Shown here in pieces: positions 48,785 through 53,955 of a DNA stretch of 64,000 nucleotides. Position 1 is the stretch's first letter, and each line of letters starts with the position of its first letter. The notes below the pieces were generated by a model. It was not told where the DNA came from. It searched no databases and worked only from the letters and a program-made list of their open reading frames with translations. A program made the translations under genes and the position numbers. This stretch comes from an uncultured bacterium (lineage in GTDB: Bacteria; Patescibacteriota; Saccharimonadia; Saccharimonadales; Saccharimonadaceae). Location of the stretch: assembly GCA_966095765.1 (NCBI GenBank), contig CBHTSZ010000002.1, forward strand, positions 32,247 through 96,246, written 5' to 3'.

Positions 48785-49633
48785 CTAGAGGCACCAGCGA
48801 TTTGCGCCGAGCGGGCGTATGGCCCCGCGTATTTCGAGCATTGTCATCGTCTGCGAGTAGGCGTTGGGGTCGAGCTTGCTCGTTGCCTGTAGTTCATCGC
48901 CATCTGTTATGCCTCTGGCTAGCAAATCCAGGATTGCTTGCTCTTCTCTGCTTTGTGCAAGAACCGTAAGCTGCCCGCCTTGTGTTGTTGGTAGGAGCTG
49001 TTCTACAAACTGTTCGACATTGACGATCGGCGTGGCACCTTGGGCGATGAGCGCGTTACAGCCGGCGCTCATCGCACTGGTTATTGGCCCCGGTACGGCG
49101 TAGACGTCTCTACCCTGTTCGAGTGCGTGCATGGTGGTATTCATCGTGCCGCTGCGGATACTTGCCTCGGTGACGATAACGATATCGGCGAGGCCACTTA
49201 CTAGCCTATTGCGTTCGAGGAAGCGGTATTGGAGTGGTGGTGTGCCTGGTTCGTACTCGCTGATAAGTGCCCCGTTCTGCTCTACGATCTTATGTGCCAG
49301 GGCTCGGTGTGTGCTCGGGTAGATACGGTCCACTCCTGATGGAAGTACGGCGATTGTGCGGCCACCAGCTCCCAGTGTCGCTTCATGGGCGATGCTATCA
49401 ACGCCGTGAGCAAGCCCACTGACGATAATCGCCCCACGCTCTGCGAGTCGTGAGGCGATATCAGCGGTGACCTGGCGGCCATAGGTGGTTGGTTTGCGTG
49501 TACCGACGATGGCAATACCGAGCGTGTACTCTGGTAATGCGCCGATGCTATAGAGGTGCTTTGGGCGTTGCGGTATCTCCTGGAGTCGGGATGGAAACGT
49601 CGGATCTGTACCGCTTATGCTATTGATTTTCAT
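48785..49633 (-). CDS. dprA: DNA processing protein DprA (Smf)
   Basis: GLAHGVDSIAHEATL, Rossmann-like core, C-terminal winged-helix-like tail. Confidence 0.85.
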   Translation of the reverse strand: MKINSISGTDPTFPSRLQEIPQRPKHLYSIGALPEYTLGIAIVGTRKPTTYGRQVTADIASRLAERGAIIVSGLAHGVDSIAHEATLGAGGRTIAVLPSGVDRIYPSTHRALAHKIVEQNGALISEYEPGTPPLQYRFLERNRLVSGLADIVIVTEASIRSGTMNTTMHALEQGRDVYAVPGPITSAMSAGCNALIAQGATPIVNVEQFVEQLLPTTQGGQLTVLAQSREEQAILDLLARGITDGDELQATSKLDPNAYSQTMTMLEIRGAIRPLGANRWCL

Positions 49634-49688: not shown

Positions 49689-50073
49689 TGGTTGATCGCG
49701 AAAGCGTTCAAACGCACCTTATACCCCCAATTCTAACGTAAGTTAGAGTGCGCGTGTACTAGCATTGAAGTTTTCTACCCTCCACTTCAACGCATCAAAT
49801 AGTCACGTGCATACTAACCCCTTTAACCCCTTATTATCTCTGCGAGGTGGTAAGGACCCCGATTTTTCAGGCGGACCACGTTATGGCAAGTATGAAGAAC
49901 TGGTTTATCCCAGGCGCACGATGCGTACCTAAATACATCAGTAGCGCTTTGCCGTGAGTAGCCCGGGTGGGTTGAAGGGTCGAATGGTGCCAGGTGATGC
50001 CCACCCTTACCTGGTACCTTTCGAAGAATACGGTATAAGAAAATAACCCCGATATATGTCGGGGTTATTTTTA
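49689..50073 (+). ncRNA. candidate structured non-coding RNA (~385 nt), class unknown
   Basis: No credible ORF. Bracketed by a promoter and a terminator. GNRA-capped hairpins at 49697-49706 and 49733-49746. 7-bp hairpin 49765-71/49784-90. Long-range 8-bp complement 49718-25/50032-39. Interleaved (pseudoknot-type) pairings 49965-71/50000-06 and 49986-94/50010-18. Confidence 0.45.
50042..50073. terminator. bidirectional terminator
   Basis: aataaccccga-tatatg-tcggggttatt with T/A runs on both sides. Confidence 0.7.
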
Positions 50074-50099
50074 TGGTGAGTAATATGGCAAATGCAAAC

Positions 50100-50138
50100 G
50101 CCCCCGACCGTTTATGGGTCGGGGGCTTTGTTTGACAG
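50100..50138. repeat. palindromic terminator element, variant copy, with TTTGTTTGACAG tail
   Basis: gcccccgac-cgtttatgg-gtcgggggc followed by tttgtttgacag. Lies directly after the cassette C stop. Confidence 0.6.
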
Positions 50139-50148
50139 TATGGACTGC

Positions 50149-50388
50149 TTATCGGTAGTGGGGGTACTTGCCGGACTCGACGCCGTGGACGAGTCGCTCC
50201 AAGCTCGTCTTGTCGTGATGCTTGGCGGCTCGCCAGAGACGCATAAAGAGCCGTGTGCGCTCTCGTCGGGTGCCCATCTCGGGCCTGTAGGTGATCTCTT
50301 CTGAGCCGTCTTCCATGATCGTTACGTCGAGCAGCATGAACGCTCGCAGCAGCGGCATCATGACGAGCAGGCGCAGGTAGCTGAACAT
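50149..50388 (-). CDS. GC-rich hypothetical protein (cassette C, 79 aa)
   Basis: ATG at 50388 follows the shared leader. High GC3. Sequence MFSYLRLLVMMPLLRAF... Confidence 0.55.
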   Translation of the reverse strand: MFSYLRLLVMMPLLRAFMLLDVTIMEDGSEEITYRPEMGTRRERTRLFMRLWRAAKHHDKTSLERLVHGVESGKYPHYR

Positions 50389-50403
50389 GATCGTTCTCTT
50401 TTC

Positions 50404-50470
50404 TGTCAAAACTCCATTTCGGAGCGGTGGTGGGCTGGAGAATCTCGCGGCTTTCGCCGCTCGACGAAAT
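50404..50470 (-). promoter_or_regulatory. conserved 5' leader stem, copy 1 (cassette C)
   Basis: Minus strand: TTTCGTCGAGCGG...CCGCTCCGAAAtggagttttgacag. Starts ~8 nt after the -10. Confidence 0.55.
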
Positions 50471-50478
50471 TAAATGCA

Positions 50479-50507
50479 ATCTTAGTATTGGATCGATAGT
50501 TTGTCAA
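50479..50507 (-). promoter_or_regulatory. promoter of cassette C
   Basis: Minus strand: TTGACA - 17 nt - TAAGAT. Confidence 0.55.
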
Positions 50508-50564
50508 CGTTTCAGAAATGAACTAAGCCCTGACAAAACGTCAGGGCTTAGAGCTTGGGTTGGA

Positions 50565-50735
50565 TCAGACGAGGCGCAACTGGCGCCAGATGAACTGGTT
50601 CTTCCGCTGCTTGCCAAAGTGGGGCTGCAGTTCGGCGTGTACGTTACAAAACGGGACCAGACCGCGTGTCTCGGAGTTGTGCTCCCAGGTTGCGATGTCG
50701 CCGCAGTCACTGCAGACTTCGAGCTCCAGGCTCAT
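50565..50735 (-). CDS. GC-rich hypothetical small protein (cassette D, 56 aa), Cys/His-containing
   Basis: MSLELEVCSDCGDIATWEHNSETRGLVPFCNVH... has a CxxC...CxxH zinc-ribbon-like pattern. Follows the shared leader. Confidence 0.5.
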   Translation of the reverse strand: MSLELEVCSDCGDIATWEHNSETRGLVPFCNVHAELQPHFGKQRKNQFIWRQLRLV

Positions 50736-50763
50736 GATACATCGTCCTTCTTTCAAGCTCCTT

Positions 50764-50809
50764 GTCTCGGAGCGGCCGACAAAAAAATACGCTCCGCCGC
50801 TCGACGAAA
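50764..50809 (-). promoter_or_regulatory. conserved 5' leader stem, copy 2 (cassette D)
   Basis: Minus strand: TTTCGTCGAGCGGC...GCCGCTCCGAGAcaaggagcttgaaag. Confidence 0.55.
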
Positions 50810-50817
50810 CTCATATA

Positions 50818-50846
50818 ACGATAAGCTAGATGGTTGTCGTGGTCAA
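50818..50846 (-). promoter_or_regulatory. promoter of cassette D
   Basis: Minus strand: TTGACC - 17 nt - TATCGT. Confidence 0.45.
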
Positions 50847-50852
50847 TAAATG

Positions 50853-50890
50853 AACAACCCCCGGCATGAAAACCGGGGGTTGTTTGACAG
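50853..50890. repeat. palindromic terminator element, copy with loop CATGAAAA
   Basis: aacaacccccgg-catgaaaa-ccgggggttgtt followed by tgacag. Confidence 0.7.
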
Positions 50891-50891
50891 G

Positions 50892-51302
50892 CTAGCGGCC
50901 GAGCTTCTTGAGGTTCTCGATTGCCTCGCAGAGACGCGCGGAGGTCATGGTGTCTCGAAGATTTCGTGATCGGGGAAAGATATCAATTTTGCCGTTCGAG
51001 AGAACGAACACCTGGCTGTGTTGGTAGCCTGGTGCGTCCATGTAGGGCTCCTTGAAAATTTCCCAAGCCGCTGTTTGATTAACAGTAACCTCCTTGCCCG
51101 ACCACCAAGAGCGCTTGGTCTGGCCCAGCAATACTCCGCCCGGCCATCCCTTCGCTTCGAGGCGTCGGAGCGCCGACTTCGCTTCCTGCTGAAGTTCCGA
51201 CCAGAGATGCTCAAGTCTGACTTGATCTTCACGCTCACGCTGTCGACTTGCTGCCTGCCTGCCCGCTTCTCGCTGCCTAAGGATTTCCTCGGGGGTGGGC
51301 AT
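50892..51302 (-). CDS. GC-rich hypothetical protein (cassette E, 136 aa)
   Basis: ATG at 51302 after GAAGGTG. Charged N-terminal helix (REAGRQAASRQREREDQVRLEHLWSEL). The C-terminal half aligns loosely with cassette F. Confidence 0.55.
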   Translation of the reverse strand: MPTPEEILRQREAGRQAASRQREREDQVRLEHLWSELQQEAKSALRRLEAKGWPGGVLLGQTKRSWWSGKEVTVNQTAAWEIFKEPYMDAPGYQHSQVFVLSNGKIDIFPRSRNLRDTMTSARLCEAIENLKKLGR

Positions 51303-51327
51303 GGGTTCACCTTCTCTCTTCTCTTGC

Positions 51328-51385
51328 CTGTCAAACTTCCTTTCGGAGAGACAGGATGTGTGGACATCGAGTCTCTCGACGAAAC
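51328..51385 (-). promoter_or_regulatory. conserved 5' leader stem, copy 3 (cassette E)
   Basis: Minus strand: TTTCGTCGAGAGAC...GTCTCTCCGAAAggaagtttgacag. Inner stem changed on both arms. Confidence 0.55.
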
Positions 51386-51392
51386 TGATGTA

Positions 51393-51421
51393 AAAATAAA
51401 ACAAAATCTATATATTGTCAA
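51393..51421 (-). promoter_or_regulatory. promoter of cassette E
   Basis: Minus strand: TTGACA - 17 nt - TATTTT. Confidence 0.45.
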
Positions 51422-51425
51422 TATG

Positions 51426-51464
51426 AAACAACCCCCGGTTTTCATGCCGGGGGTTGTTTGACAG
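51426..51464. repeat. palindromic terminator element, copy with inverted loop TTTTCATG
   Basis: aaacaacccccgg-ttttcatg-ccgggggttgttt followed by gacag. The 32-nt core is the exact reverse complement of 50853-50884. Confidence 0.7.
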
Positions 51465-51469
51465 GTGAC

Positions 51470-51868
51470 TCAGCAGTATTCGAGCGCCTGGATGGACCGG
51501 AATAGCAGATCCAGTCGGTCCAGGTCGTACTTGCCGAGCTGGGCTCGAATGTACTGTCCGCCGCCAGCCGCCGCGTAGACGATGCCGTCGGAGCCGAGAT
51601 AGAGCGTTCCCATCTCGTCACGCCATACCTCGTGGAGGTGCAGCGTGCTGCCGCTCCAGCCACGCAGCGGGCCCAAGAGGCGGTGGGCCTTACCCTGCCG
51701 GCGGACTGAAGCAACGAAGCCGCACCGCGTGGTGCTGCGGAGGGACCGGGCGACACGCATGCCCTCGTGATGGATGGCGCCGAGAAGCTCTTCTTTCCTG
51801 ATGTCGTTTCGCATGCTTCCCGGCAGCGAAACGGCGTGGAAGGTGCTAAGCAACTGCAGTGGTGACAT
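51470..51868 (-). CDS. GC-rich hypothetical protein (cassette F, 132 aa), Arg-rich
   Basis: SD GAAAGG before the ATG. Very high GC3. Own promoter directly after the pth stop. Confidence 0.6.
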   Translation of the reverse strand: MSPLQLLSTFHAVSLPGSMRNDIRKEELLGAIHHEGMRVARSLRSTTRCGFVASVRRQGKAHRLLGPLRGWSGSTLHLHEVWRDEMGTLYLGSDGIVYAAAGGGQYIRAQLGKYDLDRLDLLFRSIQALEYC

Positions 51869-51956
51869 AGCGATGCCTTTCGATGTCTCGTGCGTGACCT
51901 GCCAAACTACATTTGGATACGCGAAAGTTGCCCTTCACGCTTAACAAACTGTGCTC

Positions 51957-51985
51957 ACAATAGAGGACACAGATGGAACTGTCAA
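51957..51985 (-). promoter_or_regulatory. promoter of cassette F
   Basis: Minus strand: TTGACA - 17 nt - TATTGT. Confidence 0.5.
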
Positions 51986-51991
51986 CGCGTT

Positions 51992-52546
51992 TTAGGCGTG
52001 CGTCGTGGATTCGAAAGAGCCGGAGATAAAGCGATCGATGATCGTGGAGACTTTGCTTACGAGTTGGTCAAGCGCTTCGTCCTCGGTGCGAGTGAAGTTA
52101 CTGAGTACAAAGTCGGCGTCATCGATGCGGTCACGGAGCTCGTTATAGACACCGATGCGGATACGGGCGGTACCCTGTCCGAGATGCTGGTTCATCGACT
52201 TGATGCCGTTGTTGCCAGCGTCAGAACCGCCGATACGTGTACGGATCGTGCCGAACGGTAAAGCAAGCTCGTCATGAACGATAAGTACGTCTTCGGGTGC
52301 GATCTTGTAAAAGTCACTGATGAGGCGTGCGGCTTCACCGGTGAGGTTGTAGTACGTTGTCGGTTTGGCGAGAATGATCTTTTCGCCGCCTACAGCGAAC
52401 TCGGCGACACAGGCGCGGAACTTCTCTTTTATAGAGAACTCGATACCTTTCTCTTTGGCGTATTCGCTCAGCATGCGAAACCCGACATTGTGGCGGGTAT
52501 TCTTAAACTTTTCTTCTGGGTTGCCGAGGGCGATGATCAGCTTCAT
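51992..52546 (-). CDS. pth: peptidyl-tRNA hydrolase
   Basis: MKLIIALGNPEEKFKNTRHNVGF. Start reassigned to the ATG at 52546. Confidence 0.9.
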   Translation of the reverse strand: MKLIIALGNPEEKFKNTRHNVGFRMLSEYAKEKGIEFSIKEKFRACVAEFAVGGEKIILAKPTTYYNLTGEAARLISDFYKIAPEDVLIVHDELALPFGTIRTRIGGSDAGNNGIKSMNQHLGQGTARIRIGVYNELRDRIDDADFVLSNFTRTEDEALDQLVSKVSTIIDRFISGSFESTTHA

Positions 52547-52658: not shown

Positions 52659-53030
52659 ATGAACAAGTACCAGAAGATCGCGTTCGCCGCGCCTGCTGCA
52701 CTGGCAGTCGCCTTCCTGATCGCTTGGGTCTACGGCTTCGACGGCCTCGGTCTGGCGATCATCGTGACGCTCATCATCGCGCTGCTCACGCTGCCGATCG
52801 TCTGGAGGGCCATCTACGGGCTCGTCCAGCTGATCGCCAGTACCATCGCCTTCATCGGACACGGTGTCGGCAAGATCGGCGACACCGTCGCAGACTTCGC
52901 CTTCACCCGCCGTCAGCGCCTGGCCTCTGCGGCCAACAAGGTTCCCGACTGGGACACCCTGCGCAAGGCGGATGTCGACGAGTCACGTGCGAGTATCGAC
53001 GATCTGCTGCAGCCCCACCCCGTATCCTGA
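52659..53030 (+). CDS. GC-rich hypothetical membrane protein (cassette G, 123 aa)
   Basis: SD AAGGAGAG. About three TM helices followed by a charged tail. High GC3. Leader contains hairpin cctccgga-tcg-tccggagg. Confidence 0.65.
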   Translation: MNKYQKIAFAAPAALAVAFLIAWVYGFDGLGLAIIVTLIIALLTLPIVWRAIYGLVQLIASTIAFIGHGVGKIGDTVADFAFTRRQRLASAANKVPDWDTLRKADVDESRASIDDLLQPHPVS

Positions 53031-53124: not shown

Positions 53125-53955
53125 ATGCAACCATCACGACGGCAACGAAATGAGCTCGCACGCACGCTCAAGCAGTTCGCTTTTGAGCAGAGCCCGCTCT
53201 TTGGCGAGAACAAAGTACAAGCTATGGAGGTGACACAGTCTTTCGAGATTATCGAAAAAGTCCCCGAAGACTGTCTCATACCCGGTACGCTCCAATTTGA
53301 TCAGCTGAAAATAAAGCTCGGTTTTACGGCAACGCGCTTTAGTGAAAGTGTGAAAGCAAAGCCTGTGTACTCATACCTTGCATCGGTCGAAGGTACTCAG
53401 CTCATCCACCCTCGGCAGCTCAACTTGAGCGATGATGCATGGGTGGCGCTCTGGAAGAAGTATCTCGAAGACGAAGAAGAGATTGATCCCGAAGAGCTTG
53501 CTGCAGGTAATGTATTGCACGCGGAAACCGTTCCGGCAGACATGAAGGACGAGATCATCGATGTGTTGATCGACGCGGGTGCGGAGTGCGAACTCTATCA
53601 GAAAAGCATGCTGAGCTTCTCGTCATGTGAGCCAGGCATCGAGTCAAGTTACGAGCGTGGTATCAGTATCGAAAACGCCCTGTTTGATTCGGTCAGTACG
53701 CACGATCATTTTGACGATGATTGGGATTCGTTCAATACGCCAGATGGTGTCCTCTATGTGCCGCCACCGTACGCACCCGATGAGCTGCCTATCGGTGACG
53801 AAATCGAGGTGCGGACCCAGTTTATCGATGTGGTACGAGGCTTGGGTATGGATAAAGAGGCGTCAGAAAACGACCTCTTGCCTCACGAACACAAGCTGCG
53901 TGAGATGATGCACGTTGTCGAGTGTCTCCGTAGGCGACGAATCGACCTAGGCTAG
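53125..53955 (+). CDS. hypothetical acidic protein (276 aa)
   Basis: Clean ORF. TACACT lies 6 nt before the ATG. No motif recognised. Confidence 0.6.
   Translation: MQPSRRQRNELARTLKQFAFEQSPLFGENKVQAMEVTQSFEIIEKVPEDCLIPGTLQFDQLKIKLGFTATRFSESVKAKPVYSYLASVEGTQLIHPRQLNLSDDAWVALWKKYLEDEEEIDPEELAAGNVLHAETVPADMKDEIIDVLIDAGAECELYQKSMLSFSSCEPGIESSYERGISIENALFDSVSTHDHFDDDWDSFNTPDGVLYVPPPYAPDELPIGDEIEVRTQFIDVVRGLGMDKEASENDLLPHEHKLREMMHVVECLRRRRIDLG

Follow-up and report, generated by a model that had tools for sequence, protein, structure and literature searches.

A conserved, covarying 5'-proximal hairpin and complementary 5' and 3' untranslated regions in the gene cassettes of a Saccharibacteria locus

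Between the pth and dprA genes of an uncultured Saccharimonadaceae bacterium, several small genes lie one behind the other, and the leaders of three of them (cassettes C, D and E) open with the same stem, whose arms differ between copies and yet still pair. The question that this locus raises is whether such a stem is a selected RNA element, how far it extends beyond this genome, and what it could do for the mRNAs that carry it. We examined it in a stretch of 64,000 nucleotides (nt) from GenBank assembly GCA_966095765.1 (contig CBHTSZ010000002.1, positions 32,247 to 96,246; hereafter the window). The leader sequences of C, D and E, as quoted in an original prediction made from the letters alone, were found unchanged on the minus strand, and the 10-mer TTTCGTCGAG that they share has three perfect matches in the window, all on the minus strand at these sites. 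Our analysis demonstrates that the three leader hairpins are true members of an RNA element of Saccharibacteria, and that each cassette combines a conserved and covarying 5'-proximal hairpin with complementarity of its 5' untranslated region (UTR) to its 3' UTR.

The leader hairpin and its covariation

One genome per species (185,579 species) was scanned with the pattern TTTCGTCGAG-N15-45-CTCCGARA-N5-9-TTGA, which gave 66 loci, about 16 of them in metagenome-assembled genomes (MAGs) of Saccharibacteria or Saccharimonadales. Only in the Saccharibacteria loci do three features coincide, namely a -10 box at a distance of 8-9 nt upstream, an inner stem whose arms are complementary, and a downstream open reading frame (ORF; about 115-170 amino acids (aa), starting 10-18 nt past …GGAGCTTGARAG). 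The remaining loci, which come from Acidobacteriota, Rhizobium, Bacteroidota and other groups, fall within coding-like sequence. A covariance model made from 19 copies scored nearly all Saccharibacteria members at 38-87 bits (four diverged copies at 23-27 bits) and the pattern loci outside Saccharibacteria at no more than 31 bits; it recovered 41 copies, spread over some 27 MAGs and metagenome contigs of Saccharibacteria, with window copies C, D and E at 49-66 bits (E-values of 1e-11 to 1e-16). To the loci of the genome scan, a metagenome scan contributed 8 true ones, two of them on contigs of ~1 Mb that each hold a single positive stretch. A viral origin was considered and rejected, five pattern matches in IMG/VR being chance matches (14-17 bits), and the element had no blastn match in phage and plasmid collections.

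Eight further loci were picked only because their Pth is 71-83% identical to that of the window, blind to the leader. In this unbiased sample, wherever a small gene heads a transcription unit in the pth–dprA interval, it again carries the promoter, the hairpin at the 5' end and the boxes described below; two of the loci have no cassette at all. All loci share the synteny der–pth–(0 to 5 cassettes)–~330-nt RNA-like element–dprA–topA, implying that the leader is specific to one locus rather than a dispersed regulon motif. Its restriction to one chromosomal locus and one gene family goes beyond the original prediction, which could not place the stem in any known leader class. Consistently with that claim, Rfam 15 gave no match at gathering score in the window or in 12 related loci and, at E<=10 in the window, only weak chance matches over the terminators; permissive searches of the 12 loci likewise yielded nothing, and a full-text literature search found no description of the element.

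The hairpin follows a common plan, namely an outer helix P1 with UUU(C)G opposite C(G)AAA, a 2-nt bulge, an inner helix P2 starting GAG/CUC, and an apical part of 3 to ~60 nt. Besides the canonical UUUCG/CGAAA, P1 occurs with CGAGA or CGGAA on its 3' side (a U·G pair; several members), as UUUUG/CAAAA in locus L091, and as UUUG/CAAA in the diverged type represented in the window by a fourth cassette, B. P2 is GAGCGG/CCGCUC in canonical copies and GAGCC/GGCUC in several members, and otherwise GAGCUGAC/GUCGGCUC (L021), GAGAGAC/GUCUCUC (E of the window), GAACGGCG/UGUCGUUC (the E orthologue in L090), GAGCAA/UUGCUC (L085), GAGACA/UGUCUC (L091) or GAGC-AAA-GCUC with a 3-nt loop (L087). Across the 41 leaders, 97.5% of the P1 and P2 cells are paired, compared with 89.3±0.8% in shuffled alignments (0/500) and 22-58% when the partner strand is slid. 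Changes on both sides affect 6 of the 11 pairs (30 cells), a number reached by none of 500 shuffles, and the covariation score is 0.217 against 0.083±0.010 after shuffling. The proteins of three B orthologues (those in L082 and L083 among them) are 77-80% identical to ORF B, yet no two of these cassettes have the same P2 arms, and the arms still pair; within these three sequences alone, 3 of 9 pairs show compensatory change. When the leaders are folded by themselves, D and E take up the predicted structure, with the UC bulge and an inner helix of 7 bp; their z-scores are -3.1 and -3.2, and none of 200 shuffles was equally stable. For C, a competing hairpin had been suggested, and the minimum free energy (MFE) structure of C alone indeed consists of gcggc-GAAA-gccgc, which lies within the 29-nt apical part of this leader, together with a CUCC/GGAG hairpin.

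Three copies within 1 kb might also have been left behind, without selection, by a recent tandem duplication, or the stem might be a leader attenuator, that is, an intrinsic terminator, as could be thought of D, whose hairpin contains a U-run and was flagged as terminator-like in a consensus scan. However, orthologous leaders are kept across species in front of ORFs down to ~20% identity, the internal U-run is found in D alone, and what comes after the hairpin in all members is no U tract but A-rich sequence (AAAU) and a GGAG box; we consider either origin extremely improbable. The original prediction, that the stem is a selected RNA structure and not what recent duplication has left, is supported by the 41 homologous leaders that keep P1 and P2 with compensatory changes. 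It would have failed had no further homologues or covariation appeared; homologues were found, and their covariation is above that of the shuffles.

A TAnnnT hexamer precedes the stem in 34 of 36 cassettes, its end lying 8-10 nt ahead of the first U of UUU(C)G; in 33 of them the distance is 8-9 nt, and a -35-like hexamer stands 16-18 nt further upstream. With a start 7±1 nt after the -10 hexamer, the transcript is predicted to begin at an A or G 1-2 nt before the stem, which would place the stem at about +2/+3. The apical part lacks conservation and may be as short as 3 nt or as long as ~60 nt, which argues against an aptamer. A conserved core of the riboswitch type was not found, the interior of P2 being unconserved, and no metabolically coherent gene set was seen, the element preceding only a single family of orphan proteins, with one locus in each genome. 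The inner GNRA hairpin GCGGC-GAAA-GCCGY, to which the competing fold of C belongs, occurs in one clade only and is not significant family-wide.

Complementarity between the 5' and 3' untranslated regions

The covariance model also matched the cassette terminators on the opposite strand, and the 3' UTRs were thereby recognised as …CUYUCAAGCUCCGA followed by the terminator hairpin. This motif is the reverse complement of UCGGAGCUUGARAG, the 5' box that follows the leader stem, and the box, already noticed in the original prediction, thus proves to be one strand of a long-range helix whose other strand lies in the 3' UTR. Across Saccharibacteria, each cassette is an autonomous transcription unit built in the order sigma-70-type promoter, hairpin, 5' box, Shine-Dalgarno (SD) sequence, ORF, 3' box and an abutting G+C-rich terminator, with both boxes inside the transcription unit. 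The 5' box is of the type UCGGAGCUUGA or GUUUGACAGG; in the window, the pair is GUUUGACAGG/CCUGUCAAAC in B, C and E and GGAGCUUG/CAAGCUCU in D, and rarer pairs elsewhere are GGAGCCU/AGGCUCC, GGCGCC/GGCGCC, GGGGCUUGAGAC/GUCUCAAGUUCC and CGUCAC/GUGACG. Outside the core, each cassette carries a complementary extension peculiar to it, for instance GGC·AG/CU·GCC in E, GGUCU/AGACC in L086, GGACGG/CCGUCC in L085 and GGAU/AUCC in L051. Two box types may coexist in one genome, each fitting its own partner (D versus B, C and E in the window; also L051, L067 and L039), which excludes a common protein-binding site and indicates direct pairing in cis.

For 36 cassettes, the boxes were aligned by homology and not by complementarity (5' boxes by model column, 3' boxes by two consensus trailers). 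The in-register helix measures 5-14 base pairs (bp), with a mean of 9.8 bp against 7.9±0.3 bp for permuted partners (0/5000). In the ungapped 50-column alignment, a core of five pairs is paired in 94-100% of the cassettes, and at pair 7-44, 24 cassettes have C-G and 11 have U-A. Both sides have changed in 71 cells, compared with 41±5 after shuffling (0/500), and the covariation score is 0.230 against 0.138±0.011 in shuffled alignments (0/500) and 0.06-0.12 for slid partners. Full-length folding of 31 mRNAs (300-650 nt) placed the helix, which spans 200-450 nt, in the MFE structure of 17, among them all four window mRNAs, with probabilities of 0.86-0.99. In the predicted folds of E and D, the long-range helix lies between the intact 5' hairpin and the abutting terminator hairpin.

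It might be argued that the hairpin is a plain 5' stabiliser, and that the complementarity of the boxes is a functionless by-product of an ancestry shared by leader and terminator. The predicted position of the hairpin at the 5' end is the best-supported feature of the element, the box pairing amounts to only 5-7 bp in some cassettes, and 5'-terminal stem-loops protect mRNAs elsewhere, as in Escherichia coli ompA and the Bacillus subtilis aprE and ermC leaders. However, at least six different box pairs are complementary, beyond what the permutation and shuffle tests give, the cassette-specific extensions are complementary as well, and the helix appears in MFE structures across 200-450 nt, so this explanation appears highly unlikely to us.

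The 5' box can also pair locally, since the 3' strand of P1/P2 and the box may form a hairpin P3 (GCUCCGA/UCGGAGC), which makes a two-state switch possible. The leader would then respond to a protein, an RNA or a ligand by alternating between P1/P2 with a free box and P3 with the box sequestered, and the bound factor, possibly the cassette protein itself, would choose the state, P3 freeing the 5' end. P3 is possible in 92.7% of cells, and the B-type leaders keep an equivalent P3 hairpin of wholly different sequence (CCAAAU/GUUUGG); the MFE predictions are divided between 17 and 14 transcripts, C alone folds into the alternative state, and the near-invariant UUUCGUCGAG…CUCCGAAA is conserved beyond the needs of a plain stem. 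On the other hand, P3 has no compensatory change within the canonical class, and its complementarity would follow of itself from any need of the box to pair with the 3' box, given the likeness of the latter to the 3' strand of P1/P2. The apical region, as short as 3 nt in L087, offers no aptamer-like core, the GNRA hairpin is clade-specific without family-wide support, and a single locus is not a regulon. We therefore regard a regulatory switch as unlikely.

Layout of the locus and the cassette proteins

Four stacked mini transcription units occupy positions 50100-52000 of the minus strand of the window, in the order B, E, D, C (Table 1). A consensus scan found a sigma-70-like promoter (-35 box, 17-nt spacer, -10 box) before every unit and a G+C-rich terminator after it. 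A second promoter, starting from the TTGACA inside the 5' box, was rejected because no -10 element stands at the right spacing.

Table 1. Positions in the window of the cassette parts and of neighbouring features (5' ends, promoters and terminators are predicted)
Feature	Position	Strand	Remarks
orf276	53125-53955	plus	276 aa; between pth and der
orf123	52659-53030	plus	123 aa; between pth and der
pth	51992-52546		adjoins the cassette array
Promoter B	51957-51985	minus	-35 TTGACA, 17-nt spacer, -10 TATTGT; spacing to the leader kept family-wide
Cassette B leader	51897-51950	minus	canonical architecture, diverged sequence
5'-terminal hairpin B	51911-51949	minus	P1 GUUUG/CAAAU, P2 GCGUGAAGG/CUUUCGCGU; diverged homologue of the canonical leader
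5' box B	51897-51907	minus	GUUUGGCAGGU; pairs with 51456-51466 in the full-length MFE structure
ORF B	51470-51868	minus	132 aa; divergent W…[LV]G[ST]DGx[LIV]Y orphan family
3' box B	51456-51466	minus	ACCUGUCAAAC; abuts the terminator stem
Terminator hairpin B	51426-51459	minus	perfect 33-nt inverted copy of the E terminator
Promoter E	51393-51421	minus	TTGACA, 17-nt spacer, TATTTT
Model match E	51327-51386	minus	covariance model
5'-terminal hairpin E	51341-51384	minus	P1 UUUCG/CGAAA, UC bulge, P2 GAGAGAC/GUCUCUC
5' box E	51323-51336	minus	GUUUGACAGGCAAG; 13/14 complementary to 50882-50895
ORF E	50892-51302	minus	136 aa; singleton in sequence search
3' box E	50882-50895	minus	CUAGCCUGUCAAAC
Terminator hairpin E	50853-50884	minus	inverted-repeat and consensus scans
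Promoter D	50818-50846	minus	TTGACC, 17-nt spacer, TATCGT
Model match D	50749-50811	minus	covariance model
5'-terminal hairpin D	50765-50809	minus	P1 UUUCG/CGAGA with U·G pair, P2 GAGCGGC/GCCGCUC
5' box D	50754-50761	minus	GGAGCUUG; canonical family type
ORF D	50565-50735	minus	56 aa, Cys-rich; orthologue in L083
3' box D	50550-50557	minus	CAAGCUCU
Terminator hairpin D	50523-50551	minus	inverted-repeat and consensus scans
Promoter C	50479-50507	minus	TTGACA, 17-nt spacer, TAAGAT
Model match C	50402-50471	minus	covariance model
5'-terminal hairpin C	50417-50469	minus	P1 UUUCG/CGAAA, P2 GAGCGG/CCGCUC
5' box C	50403-50410	minus	UUUGACAG
ORF C	50149-50388	minus	79 aa (MFSYLRLL…)
3' box C	50130-50138	minus	CUGUCAAAC
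Terminator hairpin C	50097-50129	minus	inverted-repeat and consensus scans
Palindrome	50040-50071		perfect, 16+16 nt (AAAATAACCCCGATAT/ATGTCGGGGTTATTTT); directly past terminator C
RNA-like element	~49690-50030	minus	~330 nt; between terminator C and dprA
dprA	48785-49633		other flank of the cassette array

Downstream of the leaders lie orphan proteins of ~120-160 aa. The cassette proteins form one extremely divergent family, marked by a helix at the N terminus, a conserved Trp that is often part of GWPGG, and the motif [LV]G[ST]DGx[LIV]Y; their mean column identity is 17%, compared with 68% for the leaders and UTRs. They have no match in Pfam, PADLOC or PHROGs, and among 5.8 billion proteins a profile search retrieved just 7, all hypothetical Saccharimonadales proteins. 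Their predicted fold consists of helix, 4-5-strand sheet and helix. For the AlphaFold2 model of ORF B (predicted local distance difference test score, pLDDT, of 76.7), a Foldseek comparison with the PDB gave nothing below E=1; an identity as a SUKH or immunity protein, which we also considered, is therefore unsupported. ORF E, a singleton in the sequence search, has an orthologue (MPTPEEII…) behind the equivalent leader in L090. ORF C matches only the hydrophobic N-terminal part of homologues of 155-164 aa (L046 and L067) and looks like a truncated family member whose promoter, leader, boxes and terminator are intact.

The pth–dprA interval is a hot spot of gene-content change, holding 0-5 cassettes (L083, L085-L092). 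Cassette E is absent from L083, where B, D and C are kept, and in some relatives the interval contains genes for FUR, a CbiA/ParA-like ATPase, or an acetyltransferase together with a nicotianamine-synthase-like protein. The terminator hairpins of E and B, whose 33-nt inverted copies occupy 50853-50885 and 51426-51458, have the same stems with the loop flipped (TTTTCATG versus CATGAAAA), and the B orthologue of L083 has the E-type loop, which suggests loop inversion or recombination inside the palindromes along with recent homogenisation. The palindrome directly past terminator C looks like a second, bidirectional terminator that divides the array from the RNA-like element downstream.

That ~330-nt element is strongly structured and was present in every Saccharibacteria locus examined, including those free of cassettes, with the conserved strings GCGCCAGGUAAGGGUGGGCAUCACCUGGCGCC, ACCCUUCAACCCACC, AAAGGGGUUAGUAUGC, GUGGAGGGUAGAAUAC and CCUAACAUAAGUUAGAAUAGGGGGUAUAAGGUGC. 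RNAalifold on 11 copies gave 38 pairs, 24 of them with compensatory changes, and no Rfam match was found at gathering score or at E<=5. Some of its strings are reminiscent of the specificity domain of RNase P RNA, but no P4-type motif was seen. ARAGORN found no tRNA or tmRNA gene in the whole 64 kb. The two plus-strand ORFs between pth and der have no Pfam match; orf123 is kept in L082 and L015, and orf276 in L067 and L071.

Possible roles and known parallels

We propose, with confidence about evenly balanced between acceptance and doubt, that the element provides a hairpin at the 5' end and a closure between 5' UTR and 3' UTR which together control the stability or expression of the mRNA. The 5' hairpin would cap the 5' end, and pairing of the 5' box with the 3' box would create a panhandle in which the long-range helix stacks on the terminator hairpin. 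Such a panhandle may shield the ends from 5'-end-dependent and 3'-exonucleolytic decay, or may make a defined double-stranded processing site, and closure would thus govern how stable and how productive the complete mRNAs of a fast-diversifying family of small proteins are. Considering that the 5' box has alternative partners (P3 or the 3' box) and that the 3' box is transcribed last, a completion sensor within a lineage-wide, portable 'expression frame' is also conceivable: only full, terminated mRNAs would lock the protective hairpin and circularise, and incomplete messages would expose their 5' end and be degraded. We hold this more specific version to be rather doubtful.

Several points weigh against the closure interpretation. 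For most leaders, P1 and the first 3 bp of P2 were prescribed by the search pattern, and the model alignment was fitted to the structure; the constancy of these parts is therefore to some extent built in, and information on their pairs comes only from the copies that are unbiased or diverged. The sequences are related, and the shuffle tests thus overstate their independence. The position of the transcript start is inferred from the geometry of the promoter. Local P3 beats the long-range helix in 14 of the 31 full-length folds. Between the 5' box and the start codon lie 9-26 nt, mostly 13-21 (counted from the 10-nt core), with a purine-rich SD in between, so that the box is clear of the SD and a direct effect on translation is not obvious. 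Finally, a strictly symmetric rule, by which only single interior mismatches flanked by Watson-Crick runs are counted, gives 3-4 G·U against 2-3 A·C.

This last count bears on whether the pairing is selected in RNA or in DNA. In fixed columns paired in at least 77% of cassettes, the non-Watson-Crick cells are 12 G·U or U·G against 1 A·C, and P1 contains 7 U·G cells and no A·C, as would be expected of wobbles on the sense strand; the outcome varies with the criterion, and the discriminator is thus suggestive only. A first automated count of best-window mismatches was confounded by terminator matches, and a count in which wobbles were taken as pairs when the helix was defined (18 versus 2) is biased; both were set aside. 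If conservation acted on DNA, leader and trailer with their inverted boxes would be homology arms or recombination sites, and the RNA structure would be incidental. Some turnover at the DNA level is indeed indicated by the variable cassette number (0 to 5 among close relatives), by differing content (E absent from L083, foreign genes in the interval) and by the near-identical terminators of B and E, which are perfect copies over 33 nt except that the loop is inverted. The opposite-strand model matches at the terminators make the cassette ends mirror-like, the locus adjoins dprA, and the asymmetry between wobbles and A·C is not significant under the strict criterion. However, homology arms need identity, whereas P2 and the box pairs change sequence and keep complementarity, and the tolerance of P1 for U·G as well as the fixed-column counts favour RNA. 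Each genome has one locus, including those on ~1-Mb contigs, no recombinase is associated with it, and cassettes were found neither elsewhere in the genomes nor in phage, plasmid and viral collections, which speaks against a mobile element. We thus consider conservation purely at the DNA level quite unlikely.

Tandem gene cassettes split by conserved, imperfectly palindromic intergenic modules resemble integron attC sites or miniature inverted-repeat transposable elements (MITEs), but here each cassette has its own promoter and terminator, and the complementarity joins the ends of a transcript rather than lying within a recombination site; neither several sites per genome, nor an integrase or transposase, nor target-site duplications were seen. 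The hairpin shares with the ompA, aprE and ermC leaders its (here predicted) place near the 5' end, a conserved stem and an apical sequence of no importance, whereas those are individual leaders and here the stem base is near-invariant across species and is joined by a second, long-range helix. A GGAG box far upstream of the true ribosome-binding site is also known from the STAB-SD of Bacillus thuringiensis cryIIIA; here, however, GGAG is not kept in the B-type or L091 leaders (GUAG, GUGU), and the conserved complementarity is to the 3' box and not to 16S rRNA.

The closest precedents are found among mRNAs whose two UTRs pair. In B. subtilis hbs mRNA, the 5' and 3' UTRs base-pair upstream of the ribosome-binding site, which has been linked to protection from ribonucleases (PMC5737220), and in Staphylococcus aureus icaR the 3' UTR pairs with the Shine-Dalgarno region, blocks translation and forms a possible RNase III substrate (PMC3868564; review, PMC7821165). 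Our cassettes resemble hbs in that the UTRs of one short mRNA pair upstream of the ribosome-binding site in a host of Gram-positive type. However, hbs is a single housekeeping gene studied by experiment, whereas the present family is hypervariable and its pairing is supported by cross-species covariation; in the cassettes, the pairing segment of the 3' UTR adjoins the terminator and that of the 5' UTR comes after a 5'-terminal hairpin, and the two systems have no sequence similarity. With icaR they share the long-range pairing in cis of a 3'-UTR motif with the 5' UTR of the same mRNA, and the possibility of an RNase III substrate, but here 13-26 nt separate the end of the 5' box from the start codon, and the SD is left free. 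Occlusion of the SD by the 3' UTR, as in icaR, was not seen in these cassettes and is unlikely given the position of the SD downstream of the box, so that a protective interaction of the hbs type is the closer analogue.

Thus, a 5' stabiliser hairpin and 5'/3'-UTR pairing are already known kinds of element, and what is new is their combination as a conserved module, the covariation across a whole family and the restriction to one hypervariable locus in a lineage of the candidate phyla radiation. To our knowledge, bacterial pairing between 5' and 3' UTRs is documented by a handful of single-gene experiments, and we know of no family-level example supported by covariation. If the closure interpretation is true, this would be the first phylogenetically supported module of end-to-end pairing in bacterial mRNAs. 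The element comprises ~40 natural variants that keep the helix under a changing sequence. It yields a new RNA family for Rfam, and its conserved flanks provide a handle on hypervariable cassette proteins that sequence searches miss. As Saccharibacteria become genetically tractable, it might also serve as a compact expression module. The post-transcriptional biology of Saccharibacteria is almost unexplored, and this element, which sits by the competence gene dprA, offers a testable model of mRNA end protection or closure in ultrasmall bacteria.

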